Numbered from the stretch's first letter, positions 10,123 through 20,632 are shown. The stretch is DNA of 56,256 bases from an uncultured Gammaproteobacteria bacterium (GCA_964537895.1 CAZIDK010000001.1:233338-289593), one strand, 5' to 3'. Notes: generated from the sequence alone by a model not told the origin. Numbers and translations: made by a program.

Positions 10123-10812
10123 CTATTTTTCTAAATTCAACTTAAGCCCTTCAATAAAACCCTTCATCAAAAGTAGCATATTTAAACTATCCTTTACATG
10201 AATTCTTAAAACACCATGGTAATTGTCTTCATTATATTGTCTTTTCCATTTTGTTTTTTGATAAAAAGTTTTTGAAAATCCACTTTTTGGGATTCCTGTA
10301 ATTTTTGACCAATAATCCTCTATCTCTTTTGTTCTTTTTTCATAAGACTCATTTAAGGTTAACCTAGCAATTATGCTGTCTTTTTTTACTCCAAGAGAGT
10401 TTTCAAGCCATTTTATATAAAACCTTATCATTTCAGGATCAGAATTACAAAAACCCAACCGATGTTCGTGCTTGTTTTTAAATCCTTCTCCCCAATACAA
10501 AGCAATTCCTGCTATTAAGAAATCTCGATTAGTTAGGTTACCCATGCTTGTAATTCCTTTATGGAAAAGTTTCTTTTCGTTATTAAACCTTAAAGCTTTA
10601 CTCTGTTTTTGTTTTCTAATTCTTCCTTCCTGCAATGCTTTATGAGTTTTGGATTTCAATTCATCCAGTTGTCTTTGGGAAAGTTTAATATCCTTAATCC
10701 AGCTTCGAATAGTCGTTTTTGGAACATCTGTTTTTTCATATATCTGTCCTAAGCTTAAGCCTTTTGTACGAAGTTGACGTACATTGTTTTTAATAATCTG
10801 GTTATGCTGCAT
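10123..10812 (-). CDS. HTH + LAGLIDADG-like domain protein (YWGEG family) upstream of tRNA-Met
   Basis: GLSLGQIYEKTDVPKTTIRSW HTH; IAGIALYWGEG, FCNSDP, YWSKITGIP, HGVLRI; promoter TTGACA-17-CATAAT-6-ATG. Confidence 0.75.
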   Translation of the reverse strand: MQHNQIIKNNVRQLRTKGLSLGQIYEKTDVPKTTIRSWIKDIKLSQRQLDELKSKTHKALQEGRIRKQKQSKALRFNNEKKLFHKGITSMGNLTNRDFLIAGIALYWGEGFKNKHEHRLGFCNSDPEMIRFYIKWLENSLGVKKDSIIARLTLNESYEKRTKEIEDYWSKITGIPKSGFSKTFYQKTKWKRQYNEDNYHGVLRIHVKDSLNMLLLMKGFIEGLKLNLEK

Positions 10813-10920
10813 ATTTATATTATGGAAATATTATTGCTCCGTGTCAATAAGAATTTAATAAGCTCAATCATTGAGCAGTTTATTGACTATTAGCTTTATT
10901 TTTGATAGTATTCTTTTATG

Positions 10921-11181
10921 CGCGGGGTAGTGTACAGTGCACGTGAGGCTTAACATAATGGGCCGTTTTGATAGCAATAACAAAACAGTACTCAGCTATA
11001 TCGGTGAACCCCTAATTTAGGGCGATACCGAGGGAAGAGTTCGATGAGAATCGGACAACCCGTAGAGACTACACGCTGGGCTCCCTAAGATTTTAGGGAT
11101 GAAGATATAGTCCGACACTTCAAGTAATTGAAGAAACAGATGCATAATCTCACAGGCTAGGCGCAACTCCTAGCCCCGCAA
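10921..11181 (+). tRNA. Initiator tRNA-fMet (CAU) split by an intron; exons 10921-10950 and 11143-11181
   Basis: CGCGGGG/CCCCGCA with C1:A72 mismatch; spliced anticodon arm TGAGG-CT^CAT AA-TCTCA; T arm CTAGG-CGCAACT-CCTAG. Confidence 0.85.
10951..11142 (+). ncRNA. Group I self-splicing intron (192 nt, no ORF) after U33 of tRNA-fMet
   Basis: 5' exon ends in U that can pair with G of gggcc (P1); tatcggtgaa/taccga (P4), gtagagactacacg (R/P7), gaagatatagtcc (S); ends in omega-G. Confidence 0.88.
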
Positions 11182-12885
11182 CACAGTCGGAATAGAAGCA
11201 TACTTTTCTTCAAATTGTGCCTTCATTGCAAGCTCTTTTTCAGGTGCGACCGCTTCTCCGATAATCGGTGCATCTTCTTTCATTTCTTTAAGGGTGAGAA
11301 TATACTTCGGGCTGTCAATATCTACTATTCTATCCTTCAATGTTAGGTGCGACCCTAAACCCATGAAAATATCCCGTTTTATTTTCAGGTCATCCGTTGC
11401 AAATCGCTCCTTTGCCCTTGCAGCAAATGTAAACGCTTTTACCGTATCCTCGTTTGCTTGTAACATGCGGTTATCAATAGTCCCAAGCTGTTTCTCTAAG
11501 CCTCTCAATTCTTGCTCAAGCGTATCTTTCTCTCGCTTATATTGCTCATCGCTTAGCAAACCCCCATCACTATTGGCTGGTGATATTTTAAGCTGCAAGA
11601 GATTGTCCAGCTTCTTCCTACACTGATCGTGAGCTCGCTTAATGCCATCTATGGCATCCTCTCGGAAGTTTCGCTCATTATCATTCGCCTTGTGAATCTG
11701 GCGTATTGCCCAATCCATGAAAAGGGGTGAAATCTCAACATGCGTGAGCTTCTCATCAATTTGCTCCTCAAGTCTGTCAATCCGTATCGCTCGCTCTCTA
11801 CAGGCGGAGTTCTTCTTACGACTGCATCTGTAGTAGGTATAGTGCAGAATTGTAGGCTTTACCATATCTTCTATACGAGTATTACATGCCGTACACTTTT
11901 CTTTGTTGATCTTCGTCAGCGAAAACTTGAGCTTACAGTTTGTGCAAATACACTGCAACTTTTGCTCGGCAACGATACTTGAACTGCAAGACCCACACCT
12001 CACGAGGCTACCTGTATAGGCATACTCATGGTGCTTCAGTCTATACTGACTTCTGCGACCAAGTTTCAGTTGAATCTCATTAAATATCTCCTCACTTATG
12101 GTTTTTTCATGCTGTCCTTCGTACCACTTGCCGCTTCCAATAGGATACTCATACTTCCCAATGTAAAAGGGGTTCGTAAGAATAGCATAAAACATGCTTA
12201 TTGAGAGCTGCTTACCTCCGCTTCGCTTCTTCTGTCTCGTTGCAAAATGCCATTCATCTTTTGCAATCCTATGAATTTCTATAACTGGTGTACCTGTATG
12301 GAATAGCTCAAATATCTTTTTAACGAATGGTAAGCGTTCTGAATCGGTAAGTATTTTTCTAAACCCGCTTTCTGTGGTCTTGTCATTGAGATAGCCAACT
12401 GGTGCAACGCCTGGCCGCCAACCATCACGTGCTTTCTTTCCTAACCCTCGTACGACAACAATACTTTTATCATCGCTATCTTTCTTTGAAATACCAAATT
12501 CAAGCGTGAGCATAAACTTATCTTCTGGCGTATTGTGATAGGTACGGGAGGGTGTACGAATTTCTATAAGCTTGCCTTCATCCATTAAGTAAAGAATTCT
12601 GCCTGAATCAAGGGGGTTACGACATAACCTATTGGGATGCCACGTTAGGATAGCATTTGCTTTACCTACCTCTACCTTTTCAAGCATGGCATTGAATAAT
12701 TCTCTGCCTGCTTTATGAGCAGATTTTGATTCTTGGAGAATTTCAATAATGGCAAGATTATGTCGTGCTTTAATTCCTTCAAGAACGTACAGTTGCTCAG
12801 GTAAAGATGCTGCTTGCCGCTCCTTGTTATCCTCCGAGGACTTGCGAGCATAGCCTATGTATCGTAGAGTAATTTCTTTATCCAT
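11170..12885 (-). CDS. Large serine recombinase (resolvase + recombinase + Zn-ribbon + coiled coil)
   Basis: YARKSSE catalytic Ser; ESKSA, NRLCRN, APVGY, ILTNPFYIG, GQHEKTIS, CGSC, YYRC. Confidence 0.93.
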   Translation of the reverse strand: MDKEITLRYIGYARKSSEDNKERQAASLPEQLYVLEGIKARHNLAIIEILQESKSAHKAGRELFNAMLEKVEVGKANAILTWHPNRLCRNPLDSGRILYLMDEGKLIEIRTPSRTYHNTPEDKFMLTLEFGISKKDSDDKSIVVVRGLGKKARDGWRPGVAPVGYLNDKTTESGFRKILTDSERLPFVKKIFELFHTGTPVIEIHRIAKDEWHFATRQKKRSGGKQLSISMFYAILTNPFYIGKYEYPIGSGKWYEGQHEKTISEEIFNEIQLKLGRRSQYRLKHHEYAYTGSLVRCGSCSSSIVAEQKLQCICTNCKLKFSLTKINKEKCTACNTRIEDMVKPTILHYTYYRCSRKKNSACRERAIRIDRLEEQIDEKLTHVEISPLFMDWAIRQIHKANDNERNFREDAIDGIKRAHDQCRKKLDNLLQLKISPANSDGGLLSDEQYKREKDTLEQELRGLEKQLGTIDNRMLQANEDTVKAFTFAARAKERFATDDLKIKRDIFMGLGSHLTLKDRIVDIDSPKYILTLKEMKEDAPIIGEAVAPEKELAMKAQFEEKYASIPTVLRG

Positions 12886-12977
12886 AAATATCTATAATGG
12901 CCGCCCTAGTTGTACTCACACCCTTGCGGATATGTCTAGGACGGCCATTAAAAAACCGCAAGATAGGTGAGTACGAC

Positions 12978-13166
12978 TTAATTATCTTCTTTCTTGTCTT
13001 TGCTGTCAATATCTTTTTTCTTTGGTAAATCATTACCATACACAGCCTTTACAAGGCCTATTAGACGACTGCCATAGTCAATAGCTTGTTGATTGGTGAG
13101 TTTTATACCATATTCTCTAAAATACATCTGCTTAAATTCCTCAATTGATTCTTGATCCAACTGCAT
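12978..13166 (-). CDS. Small element protein next to integrase (candidate directionality/regulatory factor)
   Basis: 62-aa ORF with AAGGAG RBS, end of a three-gene operon upstream of the recombinase. Confidence 0.65.
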   Translation of the reverse strand: MQLDQESIEEFKQMYFREYGIKLTNQQAIDYGSRLIGLVKAVYGNDLPKKKDIDSKDKKEDN

Positions 13167-13167
13167 T

Positions 13168-13341
13168 TTACTCCTTTTCAGATGAGACTTTCTCCACTGC
13201 TAAAAGCTCTGCTAGATACCCTTCCAAAAGCGTTTTAATGCTCACTCCAGCCCTCGTTGCTTTAATTTTGAGTAATTGATGCAGTCCAGCGTCTATCCGT
13301 ACTTGCTTTGTAGAATTTTTGTCACTTTGTAACTTTTTCAT
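13168..13341 (-). CDS. Ribbon-helix-helix-like small DNA-binding protein (57 aa), not in ORF track
   Basis: MKKLQSDKNSTKQVRIDAGLHQLLKIKATRAGVSIKTLLEGYLAELLAVEKVSSEKE; ATGA overlap with upstream ORF. Confidence 0.7.
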   Translation of the reverse strand: MKKLQSDKNSTKQVRIDAGLHQLLKIKATRAGVSIKTLLEGYLAELLAVEKVSSEKE

Positions 13342-13667
13342 GTTTTCTTTTTGCGAACAACAATTCCATAAAAGTATTGAGCTGGTGTCGTTCTTATTCG
13401 TCCATCTTTTTGAGCCTCATTTGTTAATGCGAGACATTCAAATAGAGTTTCCGTGGAATATTGATAGGCAAGTTTTATATAAAGTTTGAGATTGTTTGGG
13501 GCATTAAGTTTTTCCGCTAACATTTCACCTATAGCTTTTGGTTTATCTATAGCGTCTCTAATTCTTTGAACAACGTTTTCATCGTAAACGTTGTTATATA
13601 TATTATTATCTACGTTAACGTTAGTACCAACGTTCTTTCTTTTAAGAATAGAATTTAAATCTTCCAT
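13338..13667 (-). CDS. Hypothetical protein, possible replication (DnaD/DnaB-C-like) protein
   Basis: N/V-rich linker then LAEKL..LYIKLA..LFECL..PAQYFYGIV; resembles 44751-45017; probable start MEDLNS. Confidence 0.5.
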   Translation of the reverse strand: MEDLNSILKRKNVGTNVNVDNNIYNNVYDENVVQRIRDAIDKPKAIGEMLAEKLNAPNNLKLYIKLAYQYSTETLFECLALTNEAQKDGRIRTTPAQYFYGIVVRKKKT

Positions 13668-13813
13668 ATAAAAAACAGTCTCCGAAGATAGGGCTCTCAA
13701 GGAGACTGTTTATTACTAATTAGTTCGTAACCTTGTATTAAACAAGCCCTATACGGTTGCTGTTATGGTAATGGAAAGGGGGTGAATATTATGGACAATA
13801 ACAGGTAGATGTG

Positions 13814-14482
13814 TTAATGTCCCTTGAGTACCTTTTTAAGGCGTTGCACGCCTTTATGGGTTGCCTCTAAGCTTCGTTCGTCATTTACATCACGAGGTAT
13901 AGATTTATCATATATTTCTTTCACTGTTTTACCTGTACTTTTTTGTTCCAGCACAGCAAAATCTTCCAATAGCCTTCTTTTTGTTCTTGCTGATTCATAA
14001 TCAGGTAAAGATTTTTGCAAGGCACGTACTTTATCCCATACCCTTTTAACATCGTTAAGAGTTGTATTTGCATTCAGCTCTAAGATTAGCAAATTAGGTC
14101 TATTGTCTTTAAAAAGCATTTTAATTTTGGGTAGAACAGGAGTATTTCCAGAACGCATAACAATCCTATCTCTTATTATTCCCCTTGTAAGATACAGAGC
14201 GAAAAAGTAAACCCAATAACGAGGTTTCTTAACAATAGGTAGAATAATTTCAGTAATATCTTGCAGAAAATTTGAATACAGAGATGGAGATTGCTTACCA
14301 GCAAATACTTTCTGTCTTGTTAATCTATCTAACCAATTCTTATACTCGCTGCTTTTTTGAAATCCTTTTGCAGGAATACTCCATTTCTTTCTAAGCTGAT
14401 TGATAGTAGCTTTTACTGCTTCTTTTGCAACCTCTAGCTGAGCGTTTTTGAATACAATTTCTCCTTGAGAGCCCTGTTTCAT
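13814..14482 (-). CDS. Hypothetical basic protein, possible C-terminal HTH
   Basis: 222-aa ORF with TGCTATACT -10 box 8 nt upstream. Confidence 0.65.
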   Translation of the reverse strand: MKQGSQGEIVFKNAQLEVAKEAVKATINQLRKKWSIPAKGFQKSSEYKNWLDRLTRQKVFAGKQSPSLYSNFLQDITEIILPIVKKPRYWVYFFALYLTRGIIRDRIVMRSGNTPVLPKIKMLFKDNRPNLLILELNANTTLNDVKRVWDKVRALQKSLPDYESARTKRRLLEDFAVLEQKSTGKTVKEIYDKSIPRDVNDERSLEATHKGVQRLKKVLKGH

Positions 14483-14519
14483 TACAGCCTAGTATAGCAT
14501 CTATGATAAAATACTTAGG

Positions 14520-16121
14520 TTGATGATCAATATTCAAAAGAAAGAATCGGAGACGATTGAATTTAAGGAATCCATGAGCGAACTTGAGAACGCTGGAGAA
14601 ACTTTATGCGCTTTCGCTAATCAAAGAGGGGGAGATTTATACTTCGGAGTAAAGAACAATGGAGAAGTAAAAGGTATCCCAAGTATTAACGAAAAGACAA
14701 CGAGAGATATTTCACAGTACATTTTTGATAATCTCGAGCCTAAAAAAATAATAAGCATAGACCAAGAAACTATTGAAGGAATAAGTATATTAAAAATTTC
14801 AATTGGAAAAAGTGATACTCCATATCATACTTTCCGCAAGAAGCCCTATATAAGAATAGGTGCATCAACAAAATTAATGCCACAAGAAGAATATCAGCAT
14901 CGCTTGATGCTCTATAAAAGCACGAACAAAGATTATTCTTCTCAAATTATCTCTGAAGCAAAACTATCGGATTTATCATCAGATGCTATAGTAAAACTTA
15001 GAGCTCTACTTATGCAATCTGGAAGATACGACGTAGATATAAGCAAATTAACTGACGAGCAACTATTAAAAGATTTATTATTGATCCGAGATAATCAATT
15101 AACAATTGCTTCCTTGGTTTTGCTTGGCTCTGAAAGTGCCTTAAGTAATTTCTTGCCTTACTCTGAAGTAAGATTCGGATATAAAATCTCCGAATCAGAA
15201 ATAAGAAATCAAGATACAGCAATATTTAAAGGGGGCTATTTACTTTATTATGATCGGATTTGGGAAAAAATTCAGGCAAGAAATCTTACTCTATCTATCC
15301 CCTTAGGAATGAGGCTGGTTGAAAAGAAGGCTTTTGATGAACAAACTATTAGAGAGGCTGTAAACAATGCAATAATTCACAGGGATTATCTCGTCCAAGA
15401 ATCTAGTTTTATTATGCAATATCCTATAAAAATCGTTATCAAAAGTCCAGGAGGATTTCCTGAAGGAATAACAATCAACAATATTATGTTTGAAACTAAA
15501 CCTAGAAATAAACTGCTGGCTGATCTGCTATTTAAGTGTGAACTAGTTGAACAATTCGGGAATGGAGTAAATTTAATGTATAAAAACCAACTGGGTCTTG
15601 GAAAGAGCCCGCCAAACTATAGACAATCAACAGATAAAAGAGTAGCCCTAGAATTAGATGGAAAAATTCAAGATTTGGAGTTCGCTAAATATGTACTCAG
15701 AGTAGCAGAAAATAAAAATAAAGTACTAAATGATGTAGAGTTATTAATTCTAAATAAAATAAAGAATAATCAAAGCGTAGTTCCTAATGAAACAACCGAA
15801 GAGCTATTAAATCTTGGACTAATAGAAAGACGAGGTTTCAAGAAATTTATGTTATCGAAACAATATTACGAAGATACTAATCAGAAAGGTATATACACTA
15901 AGCAAAAGGGTTTAACGAAGAGCACGAATAAGGCTCTCATACTTAAGCACTTGCAGAATTTCGGATCTGGCAGAAAAGAGGATATAGCTCAAATTTTTAA
16001 TTATGAAATGAATGAAAAAACTCTCTGGAAACTACTTGATGAGCTAAAGAAAGAAGAAAAAATCTATTTTGATGGAAAGCCTCGTTCACGTACTGGTCAG
16101 TGGAAATTAAAGGATAAGTAA
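14520..16121 (+). CDS. Schlafen/AlbA_2 + HATPase_c_4 (RecG-C-like) + winged-helix protein
   Basis: ESETIEFKES, CAFANQRGGDLYFGV, REAVNNAIIHRDY, SPGGFP, PRNKLLA, EQFGNG; C-terminal wHTH ending GQW. Confidence 0.85.
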   Translation: MMINIQKKESETIEFKESMSELENAGETLCAFANQRGGDLYFGVKNNGEVKGIPSINEKTTRDISQYIFDNLEPKKIISIDQETIEGISILKISIGKSDTPYHTFRKKPYIRIGASTKLMPQEEYQHRLMLYKSTNKDYSSQIISEAKLSDLSSDAIVKLRALLMQSGRYDVDISKLTDEQLLKDLLLIRDNQLTIASLVLLGSESALSNFLPYSEVRFGYKISESEIRNQDTAIFKGGYLLYYDRIWEKIQARNLTLSIPLGMRLVEKKAFDEQTIREAVNNAIIHRDYLVQESSFIMQYPIKIVIKSPGGFPEGITINNIMFETKPRNKLLADLLFKCELVEQFGNGVNLMYKNQLGLGKSPPNYRQSTDKRVALELDGKIQDLEFAKYVLRVAENKNKVLNDVELLILNKIKNNQSVVPNETTEELLNLGLIERRGFKKFMLSKQYYEDTNQKGIYTKQKGLTKSTNKALILKHLQNFGSGRKEDIAQIFNYEMNEKTLWKLLDELKKEEKIYFDGKPRSRTGQWKLKDK

Positions 16122-16190
16122 TAGGTACAGGATAGGTAGTCAAGGGGTAATCTAAGGCAACTTATAGGTACAGGATAGGTAGTCAAGGGG
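16121..16190 (+). repeat. Two exact 27-bp direct repeats with a 16-bp spacer
   Basis: ataggtacaggataggtagtcaagggg at 16121-16147 and 16164-16190. Confidence 0.9.
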
Positions 16191-16350
16191 CAGTTGATAG
16201 GTAGAGACTTCGTCTATTATAGATTCCTTATTTATAGCTCAATTCAGAAGATCATAACACTAAAAGATTTAGTAATTTTAGATAAAGTCTTAAATGTAGG
16301 ATTTCTTTTCCACTCTTAATTTCTATTATTGGCCGAGGGACACTCAAGGT

Positions 16351-16560
16351 TTAGAAGTCAAAAAGCTCAGATAGTTTGACTTCAAGGGCGTTTGCTATTT
16401 TCCACATGGTTCTTAGCATTGGTTCACGATTTCCGTTTTCAATTTCATTAACTGTCGTTAAATCTACGTTTGCCTTTTGAGCTAAATCAAGTTGAGACAT
16501 TCCTTTTCTCCCTCGTAGCTTCTTAATCTGAAAGCCTAGTCTTTGAGTAATGGTGGCCAT
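16351..16560 (-). CDS. XRE/Cro-family HTH regulator
   Basis: LRGRKGMSQLDLAQKANVDLTTVNEIENGNREP..KIANALEV. Confidence 0.9.
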   Translation of the reverse strand: MATITQRLGFQIKKLRGRKGMSQLDLAQKANVDLTTVNEIENGNREPMLRTMWKIANALEVKLSELFDF

Positions 16561-16650
16561 TGTTTCACCCCTTGAACAAATATGGCAGGGATGCCATACT
16601 TACGATATGGCGAGGATGCCAAATTTCAGCCTTTATCTAAGGGTAGATTT

Positions 16651-16914
16651 ATGAATAAAAAGAAATCTACAAAAGCAGAAGCGACTATTGCAGATAAAAT
16701 AAGAGTTAATATTGTTGATATAGTTGTAACGCTTGCAGTACCTATTATTGCCTCTCTCATTTACATTAAAGTTGCTGGCGAGGAATTTGTTTCTACTGAA
16801 CTAGGAGCGTTTATAATGTTAGGGGTAGTTTTGCTGTCCAGTATAACAGCTCATTTTACTTACAGATTCTTATTTCCGCATTATTCTGATGATCTAGGGG
16901 GTATAAAGTTTTAA
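16651..16914 (+). CDS. Two-TM membrane protein
   Basis: Two hydrophobic segments; probable start MNKKK (ORF track starts at 16582). Confidence 0.6.
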   Translation: MNKKKSTKAEATIADKIRVNIVDIVVTLAVPIIASLIYIKVAGEEFVSTELGAFIMLGVVLLSSITAHFTYRFLFPHYSDDLGGIKF

Positions 16915-16915
16915 T

Positions 16916-17644
16916 ATGATGAAAATATTTACTGGTAAGTTTTTCCGAAATGTATGGCTATTCTCAGTAGTAGTGTTCTTAGGAAATATAGCTTATGTAG
17001 TTTTCAGTCCTGGAGAGAAAAATTTACCAGAGGATAAAATATTAATCCCCACCATTATTCTCTTTGCCTCTGTTTTTATTGGCAGCATATCGTTTGTGTT
17101 CTGGATACTTTCAATAATTGATAAGCGTCTTAGCACTAGCTTTGAAAAATATTCCTCATCTCGTGGTAAAGCAGTAAAAATAATAAAAATATCCCTTATT
17201 ACTCTTTCAGCACTTTTTGTCGTTTTACTTTTAGTAATAACCTTTTTATTCTCAACGACTTCTATTACTGGTGATTCAATGGGTGGTAAATATAAAGATA
17301 ACAGCATCCAAATTATTTGTAAGATATGTAAGGAAATTAAACGAGGGGATGTGATTATATATAATACCATTCATGATCCCGACACAGATTACATTGGAAG
17401 AATAGTTGGATTGCCTAATGAAAATATAACAATTGAAAAAGGTAAGTTGCTTGTGAATGGTAATATCTTAATAGAAAATTATGCTGACTGGTCAGAATGG
17501 AATCCTCAAGAGAAGTTAGATATACAACTTAATGATGATGAATATTTTGCCTTATTTGATAGAAGAAAAATATATACAGAATCAGGGGAATTTATTAACA
17601 TTCATAAGTTTAAGAAAAGTAGTTATATAGGAAAAATCTTATGA
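16916..17644 (+). CDS. Signal peptidase I-like (S26) protein with three N-terminal TMs
   Basis: ITGDSM catalytic-Ser motif; RGDVIIY; YIGRIVGLPNE where the KR-box Lys appears replaced by G. Confidence 0.7.
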   Translation: MMKIFTGKFFRNVWLFSVVVFLGNIAYVVFSPGEKNLPEDKILIPTIILFASVFIGSISFVFWILSIIDKRLSTSFEKYSSSRGKAVKIIKISLITLSALFVVLLLVITFLFSTTSITGDSMGGKYKDNSIQIICKICKEIKRGDVIIYNTIHDPDTDYIGRIVGLPNENITIEKGKLLVNGNILIENYADWSEWNPQEKLDIQLNDDEYFALFDRRKIYTESGEFINIHKFKKSSYIGKIL

Positions 17645-17823
17645 ACTTCAATAAACCTTTTCTAAAAGGAGCTGTCATAGGAATCCTTATTTATCTTGTA
17701 TTTAATCTTTTTGTTTTACTCCTTGGTTTACCTATTCTCCTTGGATATTATTTTGCAATAGTTTTTGCACTAATTGGAGGATTAACGTCCTTGTTGTTTA
17801 ATAAAAAGAAATTAATTCAATGA
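17641..17823 (+). CDS. Small two-TM membrane protein
   Basis: 60 aa, hydrophobic, ATGA overlaps on both sides. Confidence 0.6.
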   Translation: MNFNKPFLKGAVIGILIYLVFNLFVLLLGLPILLGYYFAIVFALIGGLTSLLFNKKKLIQ

Positions 17824-18089
17824 GAGATTTATTGATTGAAGCTCTTTATAGAATTAAAGAAAATATTGGTAATATATTTGGACTGATTATATTGACAATC
17901 GTTCTTGCGCCAATCATCCTCCTACTTTTTAAAATGATAGATTATCTCTTTCCAGGTTTGCACCCAATAACATCAGCAATTAGCAATATAATATTATTTG
18001 TACCAAACTGGCTATTTTCAGGTTATACAGGTGGAGATCCCTACGAATACTGTACAGAAGATAGATTTGGTACTCCTATCTGTCCTTAA
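17820..18089 (+). CDS. Small membrane protein
   Basis: 89 aa, TM segments, C-terminal Cys pair. Confidence 0.6.
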   Translation: MRDLLIEALYRIKENIGNIFGLIILTIVLAPIILLLFKMIDYLFPGLHPITSAISNIILFVPNWLFSGYTGGDPYEYCTEDRFGTPICP

Positions 18090-18149
18090 TATCTGAAAAT
18101 ATATAAACTGATTTTAATATAAAATATTCCTATGTATTGGAAAAACAAA

Positions 18150-18923
18150 ATGAAATTATCACGTAAGCTCTACCTACCCTTTGTATTCTTAATTATCGTT
18201 AGTGCTGTTTATGTATATTCCTTTAAAACAAGTAATAACAAATTACAACAAGTAAGAACACAGGATAATACTGTAGCTTTATGGAATAAGGAAATAACAG
18301 AGAAATACGACGACGAACCAAAATATGAAGATGACTATCGTAAAATTTCTTCGTCATCTGCATGGATTGTACCTCCTGATCCATATGTTGTAAGACCCCT
18401 GCATGTTCCAGAGGACGAAAATGTTGATATGTTGCTTAAAATGGCAAGCAGAGGAACAAGCACCCCAGTATTATCTGATAAAGACATTGACGAGATATGG
18501 ACAAATAGTACTCTTAACAAAGACATATTAGAAAAGTTTGTTAAAACAAATAAACTTCCTGAGTTTTTTTCCTATTTCTTCTATAGGGAAACACGTCTAC
18601 CCCTAAAGTTTTGGGATGAGGATATTACAGGAGATGGGTTTAAAGACCAGTTGTTCTCAGGTGTAGGGGTAGGCTGCATTAGTTGTCATACTTCATTCAT
18701 TGACATTTTTGTTAAGGGACAGGGTATATTCCAAGCAGAAACAAATAAAGGAACTATTTATTCAAGGGTAGACAACAAAGGATTTTACCTTGATAGTTAC
18801 TATACTGGAAAAGATTACGCTACATGCTGTCCAGATAAGGTAGTAGTAAGTAAATATGAATGGAATGGTAATGGCTTTACAGAGATAGCAAGAAAAGAAT
18901 TGATTCTAAAAAGTATTAAGTGA
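18150..18923 (+). CDS. Exported/membrane-anchored hypothetical protein
   Basis: N-terminal TM; DITGDG, CISCH, CCPD..YEWNGNGF. Confidence 0.65.
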   Translation: MKLSRKLYLPFVFLIIVSAVYVYSFKTSNNKLQQVRTQDNTVALWNKEITEKYDDEPKYEDDYRKISSSSAWIVPPDPYVVRPLHVPEDENVDMLLKMASRGTSTPVLSDKDIDEIWTNSTLNKDILEKFVKTNKLPEFFSYFFYRETRLPLKFWDEDITGDGFKDQLFSGVGVGCISCHTSFIDIFVKGQGIFQAETNKGTIYSRVDNKGFYLDSYYTGKDYATCCPDKVVVSKYEWNGNGFTEIARKELILKSIK

Positions 18924-19408
18924 CTATTATGGAAAGAAATATTTGGAAGATTTTCGGATTAGCATTACTAGCTACTCCAATGGCAACCTTTGTTGGTCTT
19001 ATCGTCATTACTTTAATTGAGGCTATAGGCGACGCAATTACTAAAATTCAATTAGCTGGATACTGGTGGATAATTCTGATCGTAGCATATGTTTTATCAT
19101 TTCTATATTTTTTCTATATACCTACATTCCGCAAGAATCGAGAAAGAGAAAAAATTGCTTATGGACTTCTGTTTTATTGGGAAGAACAACTTATAAAACA
19201 AATTAAGCCCTTGCCATCAGATAGAGAGCGTGAAGTAATAAGCGATTTAATTCTTGAAAGAGTGAAGATTTGGGCATGGAAAGATCCCAAGTTATGGTCT
19301 AGGTACTTTAGTAACGAAGAATATTCAAAATATCTTTTCGTAATGATAGATATTCTAATGAAAAAATATTACTCTAAAAATCCTGTAAAGGCTTTCTTCG
19401 GACGTTAG
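18920..19408 (+). CDS. Membrane hypothetical protein
   Basis: Two N-terminal TMs; GTGA overlap with upstream gene. Confidence 0.6.
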   Translation: MTIMERNIWKIFGLALLATPMATFVGLIVITLIEAIGDAITKIQLAGYWWIILIVAYVLSFLYFFYIPTFRKNREREKIAYGLLFYWEEQLIKQIKPLPSDREREVISDLILERVKIWAWKDPKLWSRYFSNEEYSKYLFVMIDILMKKYYSKNPVKAFFGR

Positions 19409-19852
19409 AATTATTTGCAAATACAATAGAGTAATTCTAGCCATTCTAATAAAAAACAGTATTTTGGAATATGTGTATAGGGAATATACCCTTTTTGGAA
19501 TGTCATTTAAATACTTTTAAGTGCAAAAGAGATCAATTTATGTCAAAAATAGCACTTAGACTTACGTCAAAAATAACATAGTCTATCACCTAGACATAGC
19601 TAAGTTTAGCATTTAGGGTAGCATAGTAATAGCATATAAATAGCCTATAGATCCCCCACTCTGTATAGGCAATAACCCTAGTCTAATGAGCATTTTCTAT
19701 AATTTGAACTACTAGTACCCCAGCCTTAATAAATTTGAAATCTGATTATTAGTGGAAAACTTACCTCAAGTCTGGTATAAATAGAGGCGTGGACTGGGTG
19801 AGGAAGAAAATTCGTATTTCTTCCAATCCCCGCAACATATTCCTCTTTTCCT

Positions 19853-20632
19853 ATGAAAGAACCTATTGGAATAATCGACTCGGGGGTCGGCGGGCTCTCC
19901 ATAGCTTCGGTTTTAATTAAAAAACTTCCAAACGAATCAATAATTTATCTGGCAGATTCCAAAAACTGTCCTTACGGAGAAAAAAGTAAAGAAGAGATTT
20001 ATAATTTAACAAAAAGGATGGCAAGGTTCCTTCTTAAAAGCAGGATAAAACTTTTAGTTGTGGCCTGCAACACAATTACTGTAACTTGCATTGATAGACT
20101 TAGGCAAGATTATCCGAATTTGCCAATTGTAGGCATAGTTCCTGTCTTAAAAACAGCCGCAGAAAGAACTAAAAACGGCAAAATAGGCATATTTTCAACT
20201 AAAGCTACAGCAAAAAGTCTTTATCAAAAAGACTTGATAGAAAAATTTGCCTCAAATTGCCATGTTGTAAATGTTGGTTCTTCATTGCTGGTTCCCTTAA
20301 TAGAAAAACTGGATTTTGAAAGTATTGATAAACTGTTAAAGAAAGAACTTAAACCGTTCAAGGAAGCAAAAATAGATACGCTTGCGTTGGGCTGCTCACA
20401 TTTTCCGCTAATTAAAGTCCAAATCCAAAAGATTTTACCCGGGGTTTTAATTTTGGATAGCGCGGGAGCCGTTGCAAGGCAGATACAAAGAATTTTAGAA
20501 CACAATAAAATGCTATCTAATTCCGGCGATGCGAGTTATAATTTTTATACAACCGGAAGCCTAGAAACGCTGAAGTATTTTGTCAGTAAATTGACAAACA
20601 AGGCTAAGTTAAGTAGAATTTCGCTTCTATGA
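19853..20632 (+). CDS. murI: Glutamate racemase
   Basis: IGIIDSGVGGLS, PYGEK, VACNT, LGCSHFP. Confidence 0.96.
   Translation: MKEPIGIIDSGVGGLSIASVLIKKLPNESIIYLADSKNCPYGEKSKEEIYNLTKRMARFLLKSRIKLLVVACNTITVTCIDRLRQDYPNLPIVGIVPVLKTAAERTKNGKIGIFSTKATAKSLYQKDLIEKFASNCHVVNVGSSLLVPLIEKLDFESIDKLLKKELKPFKEAKIDTLALGCSHFPLIKVQIQKILPGVLILDSAGAVARQIQRILEHNKMLSNSGDASYNFYTTGSLETLKYFVSKLTNKAKLSRISLL

Follow-up and report, generated by a model that had tools for sequence, protein, structure and literature searches.

A tRNA-fMet island of a candidate-phyla-radiation bacterium with a large serine recombinase predicted to exchange its C-terminus upon integration

Introduction

The window analysed in this study, the whole 56,256-nucleotide stretch G000:C1:233338-289593, comes from the genome (0.79 Mb, 97.55% complete) of a tiny bacterium of the candidate phyla radiation (CPR), and positions 11184-19837 of it are, to judge from the sequence, an integrated mobile island that was inserted at the 3' end of the gene for tRNA-fMet through recombination by a large serine recombinase (LSR). 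The attachment (att) core of the island lies within the open reading frame (ORF) of its own integrase gene, int, and it is highly probable that this architecture entails an exchange of integrase isoforms upon integration, in which the excised circle would encode a long form of the enzyme and the integrated island a form lacking its last 21 residues. The overall explanation, which we favour with good confidence, is an island with its att site inside int, an integrase with a swapped C-terminus and a tail that would have a function as part of the protein.

Serine integrases are major tools of genome engineering, and the direction of their reaction is normally set by a separate protein, the recombination directionality factor (RDF). 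The evidence for the exchange is presented first, followed by its conservation among related islands and by the readings that compete for the role of the tail.

The att core within the integrase gene

The core CCCCGCAACA is present in two copies, attL and attR (Table 1), which are identical over exactly 10 nt and are flanked by different bases, with a distance from core to core of 8,654 bp. The ORF of the integrated form agrees with the first-pass annotation of this DNA, according to which the recombinase ends in PTVLRG and stops at a TAG in the antisense T-arm of tRNA-fMet; this stop is the reverse complement of 11170-11172, within the 3' strand of the T-stem of the plus-strand tRNA. The same annotation had held that joining the two cores keeps the frame open through 19826-19764 as far as a TAA at 19763-19761, and translation of 19835-19761 on the minus strand gives LRG-LEEIRIFFLTQSTPLFIPDLR followed by that TAA, i.e. 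21 additional codons. All of its coordinates and residues proved correct, and both the position of the core inside the integrase ORF and the 21 extra residues of the attP form can be seen directly. Its proposal of a long integrase in the circle and a truncated one in the integrated state stands as far as the encoded forms are concerned, in the window as well as in the homologues described below; the switch that it suggested on this basis is weighed separately.

The tRNA-fMet gene that ends in the left core is split between U33 and C34 by a group I intron (Rfam RF00028, 70.3 bits, E 2.1e-17, at 10941-11134), and because this intron interrupts the anticodon loop, ARAGORN returned no call for the gene, even with its intron option. 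The exons are letter-identical to the intronless tRNA-fMet of a relative, G019, and of G001, which belongs to the same genus (exon 1 is compared with G001 from base 10937, where the contig of the latter starts). The genome carries a single copy of the tRNA-fMet 3' end, and this is the only tRNA-fMet gene that was found in it. In G001 the contig starts inside tRNA-fMet, which is followed by 440 bp with a GIY-YIG fragment and then by murI, and in G019 the order is tRNA-fMet, a 352-bp spacer and murI; neither the 8.65-kb insert nor an LSR is present between tRNA-fMet and murI in either genome. Both share the gene order of the window, and they are the island-free relatives with tRNA-fMet upstream of murI that the first-pass annotation had anticipated. 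The window itself has the displaced-fragment layout, with an intact tRNA regenerated at one end (exon 2 equals that of the relatives through the core) and the 3' fragment at the other.

It might be argued that the two copies of CCCCGCAACA are a chance repeat and that the LSR is a resident gene unrelated to its flanks, the repeat being only 10 nt long and the 8-mer CCCCGCAA occurring six times in the window, four of them besides the attL and attR cores. We assign this a negligible probability. It is contradicted by the two empty sites and by conserved in-frame tails, the same arrangement with an in-frame tail being present in 19 other loci, and the repeat is not due to chance because one copy is the only tRNA-fMet 3' end of the genome and the other has a conserved in-frame peptide.

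The exchanged tail in homologous islands

The LSR has 476 homologues at E <= 0.001. Among the 120 that were listed, classified by regular expression, 35 end at a motif of the ...[LV]LRG type, 66 run on for 5-52 residues, five have a true tail and 14 are unclassed. The run-on residues are translated antisense tRNA-fMet, as in ...WELNPACEIM..., whose EIM corresponds to the anticodon loop read in antisense. The closest homologues are from metagenome-assembled genomes of Microgenomates and Patescibacteria, and a close set of 25 genomic loci, with LSRs 52-78% identical to that of the window, was examined.

All 25 close loci read ...LR[GS] or ...CRD at the junction with the antisense tRNA, with the junction codons TGTTGCGG[GA]G across the set and TGCCGG in L026, and ARAGORN placed a tRNA-Met exactly at the junction in ten of 24; of eight loci examined among the remainder, five have a group I intron at this place. 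As the first-pass annotation had expected of homologues, the in-frame tail is conserved: 19 of the 25 have a second core (7-20 nt) at a distance of 4-11.5 kb behind the end of the LSR, and the sequence next to it reads, in the LSR frame, L-[EQHK]-E-[ILV]-R-[TN]-[YFW]-[FY]-L, and in about a third of these the tail extends by ..TP[IV]FIPDL before the stop. The sequence upstream of the distal cores is not conserved and contains stop codons, and four of the six tail-less loci have less than 4.6 kb of upstream sequence. Integration at the 3' end of the tRNA gene, regeneration of the tRNA, replacement of the last 21 codons by a stop and recurrence across the clade can all be read from these sequences, which indicate that the layout is common to the whole tRNA-fMet clade of CPR islands.

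In seven of the 25 loci (L028, L030, L031, L032, L035, L038 and L076) two or three core-plus-tail copies stand in tandem behind one LSR. In L090, L091, L093 and L096, which represent four samples of one metagenomic organism, one and the same int-less but complete attP-like site, made up of the last 14 int codons and the tail, lies 930 bp from tRNA-fMet. The tandem copies and the int-less site suggest repeated insertion into an occupied site, followed by decay.

A natural long form, P0024, is encoded on a 7,128-bp contig; it has 591 residues with an uninterrupted tail and ends in ...SLCRHLEEIRTYFLTSPTPAFIPDLR. An AlphaFold2 model of P0024, based on a 36-row alignment, has a mean pLDDT of 86.5 and contains helices at residues 547-563 and 565-580, the second of which (SLCRHLEEIRTYFLTS) is the modelled last helix, so that the crossover would cut this helix about one third of the way along. 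A relative that is 78% identical to P0024, L026, is integrated in tRNA-Phe and ends in ...SLCRDQESNLD. In this tRNA-Phe sub-lineage LLRG is changed to LCR[DH], so that the crossover residues vary with the acceptor stem of the tRNA that is targeted, as a core within the ORF would require.

Constraint on the tail as protein and as DNA

The column entropy of the tail repeats with a three-base period, being close to 0 at position 2 and 1.3-1.7 at position 3. Its Leu codons alternate synonymously between TTG, CTC, TTA and CTA, and the Arg codons also vary synonymously. For tail codons 3-10 (27 tails) pN/pS is 0.31 in frame versus 1.37 and 1.42 in the shifted frames, figures that are descriptive only because the rows are mutually related. 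Focusing on more distant homologues, 17 of them carry the motif P-x-[LV]-L-R-G-[LW]-[DEN]-[DEN]-[VI]-R-T in one piece at the C-terminus, with no adjacent tRNA; these loci belong to Flavobacteriaceae (Bacteroidota), Rhodothermales, Akkermansia and unclassified bins, with chromosomes of up to 5.6 Mb. The tail motif is also contiguous in P0114-P0116 and P0118. The periodicity together with the pN/pS values, the contiguous distant motif and P0024 argue that the proximal tail is translated as well as constrained as DNA.

An alternative is that the overlap merely saves space, with the tail conserved as the P arm of attP and as an outward promoter and its extra residues idle for the enzyme. In length, the 9-10 conserved codons correspond roughly to an LSR attP half-site, for which 27 nt are expected, and ..FIPDL in the distal part is the reverse complement of the -10-like motif TGGTATAA[AT] in the window and in five other loci (L022, L025, L034, L036 and L044). 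In L034 the peptide is changed (SVIIPNL) while the motif becomes a perfect TGGTATAAT. The form in the window, TGGTATAAAT, was not listed by a scan for sigma-70 promoters, which requires a -35 element. In G001 and G019 TGnTATAAT is found 7 nt before the murI ATG, which suggests that murI of the island-free relatives is transcribed leaderless; the attR core is situated 15 nt upstream of murI, and the displaced gene, whose own upstream sequence amounts to these 15 nt, probably receives a promoter from the end of the island. A promoter role alone could explain the conservation of ..FIPDL. The residues that replace the tail after LRG are unrelated to one another and number from 0 to about 50, so that the enzyme would tolerate anything at this position. 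Against idle residues stand the proximal periodicity, the synonymous changes of Leu and Arg codons and the pN/pS contrast described above, as well as the presence of the peptide, uninterrupted, in 17 distant LSR ORFs with no tRNA beside them and the modelling of the tail as a confident helix. We therefore regard a purely space-saving arrangement as quite improbable.

The integrase and a candidate directionality factor

By its catalytic domain, DBD1, zinc ribbon and coiled coil the enzyme is a large serine recombinase. It matches Resolvase (PF00239, E 8.4e-14, residues 10-153) and Recombinase (PF07508, E 4.5e-9), with no tyrosine-recombinase family in the Pfam scan, and belongs to the integrase family PHROG 95. 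R14 and S16 are invariant in alignments of 26 and 36 sequences; the invariant cysteines are 297, 300, 314, 317, 331, 334, 354 and 362, and long antiparallel helices, the inserted coiled coil, are modelled at 368-496. In a full-length Foldseek search the SPbeta, Bxb1 and phiC31 integrases were matched, the SPbeta enzyme best (E about 1e-18). At the presumed P' arm ...ASIPT[LV] is kept in the LSR family. An ungapped scan for symmetry of the att arms scored only 0.34 and left the centre ambiguous, the window's row among the 19 having been mis-assigned in the script; the shared core is 10 nt long in the window and 7-20 nt in relatives.

The protein of 62 residues encoded next to int has no Pfam or PHROG family. 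Of the 25 close loci, 21 have a homologue of it; each of these is encoded on the int strand, in 20 cases within about 300 nt upstream of int. A complex predicted from LSR residues 285-571 and the 62-residue protein scored 0.75, versus 0.02 for the best of three controls; a score of 0.75 was reached by 58 of 80 solved complexes and by two of 110 mismatched pairs, counts that hold only roughly because our own alignments were used, and likeness to solved LSR-RDF complexes may help the score. The runs agree in at least 69% of contacts, with a partner pLDDT of at least 76, and the predicted interface, LSR residues 385-400, 487-512 and 526-528, is located at the coiled-coil base and in the neighbouring portion of the zinc ribbon. 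In solved systems RDFs act at the coiled-coil hinge and DBD2, according to a recent preprint (bioRxiv 10.1101/2025.01.03.631226). The modelling supports the 62-residue protein as a candidate RDF.

Proposed mechanism and direction of the exchange

According to the sequence comparison, attP lies inside the 3' end of the island's own int, and the circle would encode the long form, whose last helix, ...[TS][LV]LRG-LEEIRxFFL..., is followed by about 12 more residues. Integration cuts int at the codons for LRG, which correspond to the acceptor stem of the tRNA read in antisense, and the tRNA is regenerated from island DNA. The end of the integrase is replaced by the antisense reading of the tRNA, which gives an immediate TAG here and 0 to about 50 unrelated residues in relatives. 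The tail may then be a functional part of the protein that is used only in the excised state, where it would be positioned next to the coiled-coil hinge and the DBD2 pocket. We prefer a scheme in which the long form is proficient in integration and loss of the helix alters the response to the 62-residue factor, a change that could permit excision or could attenuate the enzyme in the manner of Mx8 IntX. That the exchange amounts to a real switch of directionality or stability, with either sign, is a tentative idea that we hold to be doubtful.

A more specific and rather unlikely form of it would be a toggle, in which the helix occupies or shields the hinge and DBD2 pocket in the circle, where the RDF would be ineffective and attP x attB integration would go ahead, and in which integration exposes the pocket and allows RDF-driven attL x attR excision. 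Such a toggle would be self-resetting and covalently encoded, with the gene structure itself as the direction signal in the tRNA-fMet CPR clade. The presence of the RDF alone could not set the direction in this case, because the 62-residue gene and int form one operon and their products would be made together.

A number of observations weigh against a functional tail and a reversible exchange, and they are gathered here. The relatedness of the rows behind the pN/pS values is one of them, and for the distal codons 11-22 the frame test is weak (0.42 versus 0.64 and 1.86, in eight rows picked by motif). Constraint at the DNA level adds to the conservation of the tail, because the expected attP half-site falls on the proximal codons and the outward -10-like motif on the distal ones. 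P0024 is the sole long form that turned up in the close clade, one of the 120 listed homologues, and it was also the only protein returned by a search with the tail region among 5.8 billion proteins; a tandem array, instead of a circle, could be its source. The output of the P0024 model comes without contacts, so that the packing site of the last helix is not visible in it. By analogy with SPbeta, loss of the C-terminus would impair excision rather than enable it, so that any switch could have either sign.

The wider clade and the searches for excised forms belong on the same side. In the wider clade the LSR C-terminus lies on tRNA-Asn, Ser, Asp, Tyr and Met genes. A repeat search in 10-kb flanks of the tRNA-Asn/Ser/Asp/Tyr clade gave a distal in-frame tail in one of 17 loci (L045), and a peptide regular expression for distal tails in 10-kb flanks of the same clade gave none in 21 loci; because of the single case among 17, the tail swap is demonstrated only for the tRNA-fMet clade and the tRNA-Phe pair P0024/L026. 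Four sequencing runs of one study, X1-X4, which are probably the source samples, hold the locus in full and were examined as Logan assembled contigs; they cover the integrated form only, with no attP or attB joints, and contigs cannot show rare forms. Two further runs contain a small share of the locus. Minor loose ends in X1-X4 are unrelated to the att sites. Because the data are contigs, the missing joints are no evidence against excision. A degenerate DNA pattern specific to attP had no matches in viral contigs and nine in metagenome contigs, none of which joins a full-length int to the tail; four of the nine stretches are one int-less attP-like remnant, one is a remnant of 57 residues, two are of the attR type and two are unrelated. 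In run X4 a low-depth alternative contig (2.8 versus 55) joins different sequence at the 5' end of tRNA-fMet (10920-10949), and this contig probably stems from another strain or organism that shares the tRNA.

The swap could also stabilise integration for good, the truncated form being crippled for excision and the islands decaying and piling up. The C-terminus of the SPbeta integrase, which is essential for excision and largely dispensable for integration (bioRxiv 10.1101/2025.01.03.631226), would fit such a one-way course, as would the tandem core-plus-tail copies in seven of 25 loci, the int-less remnant 930 bp from the tRNA and the lack of excision junctions in the contigs of the four runs; integration of Mx8 modifies the enzyme rather than inactivating it (PMC6070905). 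Against an irreversible course, the integrated LSR ORFs are intact in the 25 close loci and the 62-residue partner is retained, which suggests selection on the short form. Furthermore, the tail would be translated only after excision, and its conservation at the protein level therefore implies that excision and re-integration recur. On balance an irreversible exchange appears somewhat unlikely, and the scheme with an integration-proficient long form and an altered response of the short form is retained as the preferred one.

Other features of the island and its surroundings

The features of the locus are collected in Table 1. Apart from the named cargo genes, the island contains small membrane-like ORFs and ORFs without a family, and most cargo ORFs have no homologue in other islands; the Schlafen-type protein, the S26 signal peptidase and the membrane-like ORFs are not shared with them, unlike the XRE-type protein. 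The regulator of 57 residues matches Omega_Repress with an E value of 4.2e-6 and 27.3 bits, versus a cut-off of 33.3, and the Arc-like PHROG 582. Orthologues of murI are present in 25 of 41 genomes, i.e. 40 relatives and G000.

Table 1. Positions of the att cores, genes and RNA elements in the window
Feature	Position	Strand	Description
tRNA-fMet exon 1	10921-10950	+	From the acceptor 5' strand (CGCGGGG) to anticodon-loop base U33
Group I intron in the anticodon loop of tRNA-fMet	10951-11142	+	Bounds from comparison with intronless genes
tRNA-fMet exon 2	11143-11183	+	Anticodon CAT, T-arm and acceptor 3' strand; ends in the att core
LSR, integrated short form	11170-12885	-	571 residues, ends ...IPTVLRG; from ORF, Pfam and PHROG
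attL core CCCCGCAACA	11174-11183		tRNA 3' end; antisense is LSR codons V-L-R-G
Presumed P' arm of attP	11184-11211	-	Within the last LSR codons (...EEKYASIPT)
62-residue gene, candidate RDF	12978-13166	-	Directly upstream of int
57-residue ribbon-helix-helix-like regulator	13168-13341	-	Weak matches, below the Pfam cut-off
Variable cargo	13338-19408		From ORF calls and Pfam
Schlafen AlbA_2 and HATPase_c_4 protein	14520-16121	+	533 residues; island cargo
XRE-type HTH protein	16351-16560		Island cargo; shared, in seven loci
S26 signal peptidase	16916-17644		Island cargo
Integrase tail exon	19761-19826	-	21 codons and TAA; read only with the cores joined (attP form)
Extended -10-like motif TGGTATAAAT	19773-19782	+	Faces murI; antisense to tail codons (F)IPD
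attR core CCCCGCAACA	19828-19837		Displaced tRNA 3' fragment
murI (glutamate racemase)	19853-20632	+	Pfam PF01177; host gene flanking the island

In L026 the 62-residue gene and int stand beside the gene (642-2258) for a protein of 538 residues, which contains a P-loop-like motif and matches no Pfam family. This protein may act in replication, in which case the islands would be integrative, plasmid-like elements.

The group I intron is found at the same place in five of eight other LSR-occupied loci examined (L022, L023, L032, L040 and L043) and is absent from G001 and G019. The GIY-YIG fragment of G001 (L002 274-462; Pfam E 7.7e-6) is a frameshifted nuclease directly after the unoccupied tRNA-fMet, and sequence resembling it is found behind the core in L025 and L036; the tRNA-fMet site may also serve another kind of element. 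Between tRNA-Met and tRNA-fMet of the window lies an ORF of 229 residues (10123-10812, minus strand) with no Pfam family and a weak N-terminal helix-turn-helix/transposase-like PHROG match, and homologues with 32-59% identity are found near tRNA-fMet in L023 (three copies), L027, L037, L039, L040 (two copies), L043 and L091. This ORF may be a mobile or homing-type gene.

The divergent tRNA-Met/tRNA-fMet pair by murI was compared in L003, L005, L007, L008, L013, L014 and L017. In all of these except L003, tRNA-fMet is beside murI and points away from it, with an elongator-type tRNA-Met between them. The pair is inverted between genera, because tRNA-fMet faces murI in the window, G001 and G019 and has the opposite orientation in these six relatives.

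Relation to known systems

The closest precedent is the intP/intX arrangement of Mx8, which integrates at tRNA-Asp, and the idea of an integrase altered by its own integration is not without precedent. In a review of Mx8 (PMC6070905) attP is placed within the integrase coding sequence, with integration giving a new 3' end and a modified enzyme, and in the present island attP likewise lies inside the int ORF and integration provides a new 3' end. Unlike Mx8, whose Int is a tyrosine recombinase, the enzyme described here is an LSR, with another chemistry and with control of directionality through the coiled coil and RDF. Its replacement tail comes from antisense tRNA, with possibly zero residues, and in CPR bacteria a whole clade has this layout. 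The Islander report (PMC4383910) mentions Mx8 and SSV, both with tyrosine recombinases, as cases in which the integrase ORF runs across attP. As in the SSV-type archaeal integrases, the ORF here extends across attP; unlike here, SSV integration splits int into two parts, and the enzymes are tyrosine recombinases of archaeal viruses.

SPbeta, whose integrase SprA has been solved with its RDF (9dxd, 9dxf, 9dxh and 9y66), integrates into a protein-coding target, the gene spsM. The predicted position of the small 62-residue protein at the DBD2/coiled-coil hinge resembles that in the SPbeta complexes. The extreme C-terminus of the SPbeta integrase (residues 530-545, with F532) occupies the DBD2 pocket, contacts the RDF and has been described as belonging to a 'molecular toggle switch', with the requirement for excision mentioned above (bioRxiv 10.1101/2025.01.03.631226). 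A role of the extreme C-terminus in directionality is thus a feature of SPbeta, and by analogy it may apply here. Unlike the present enzyme, with which it shares about 19-20% identity, the SPbeta integrase has a constant C-terminus, and an attP inside its gene is not reported.

In the mycobacteriophage BPs attP lies inside a regulatory gene, and integration truncates the product and changes its behaviour. BPs differs from the island studied here in that a repressor rather than the recombinase is remodelled, and in that its integrase is a tyrosine recombinase. BPs and its relatives are described as having integration-dependent immunity (PMC4557955). The regenerated tRNA 3' end, the displaced fragment at the far end and the abutment of int on the tRNA are shared with the tRNA islands catalogued by Islander, whose authors stated in 2015 that only tyrosine integrases were then known to target tRNA genes (PMC4383910). 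Unlike that catalogue, the present set has LSRs at tRNA-fMet, with relatives at tRNA-Phe, Asn, Ser, Asp and Tyr.

Neither an LSR whose own ORF contains attP nor an LSR island at a tRNA gene of Patescibacteria came to light in a literature search confined to listings and selected passages. Catalogues that gather att sites on a large scale, for example the one underlying PMC12884075, may include such cases without comment. What is new here is a tRNA-targeting LSR that would be remodelled by its own integration, an attP within int being already known for tyrosine integrases.

Conclusion

In conclusion, this study describes a natural clade of islands in which integration would rewrite the C-terminal helix of an LSR, which would provide two isoforms of one enzyme for direct comparison; the isoform swap might also offer a route to self-limiting integrases. 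With this clade, LSRs join the recombinases that target tRNA genes, and tools that search for tRNA islands through tyrosine integrases only would miss them. For the CPR/Patescibacteria, the islands represent a small mobile element that recurs at the only initiator-tRNA gene, with variable cargo and tandem decay products.

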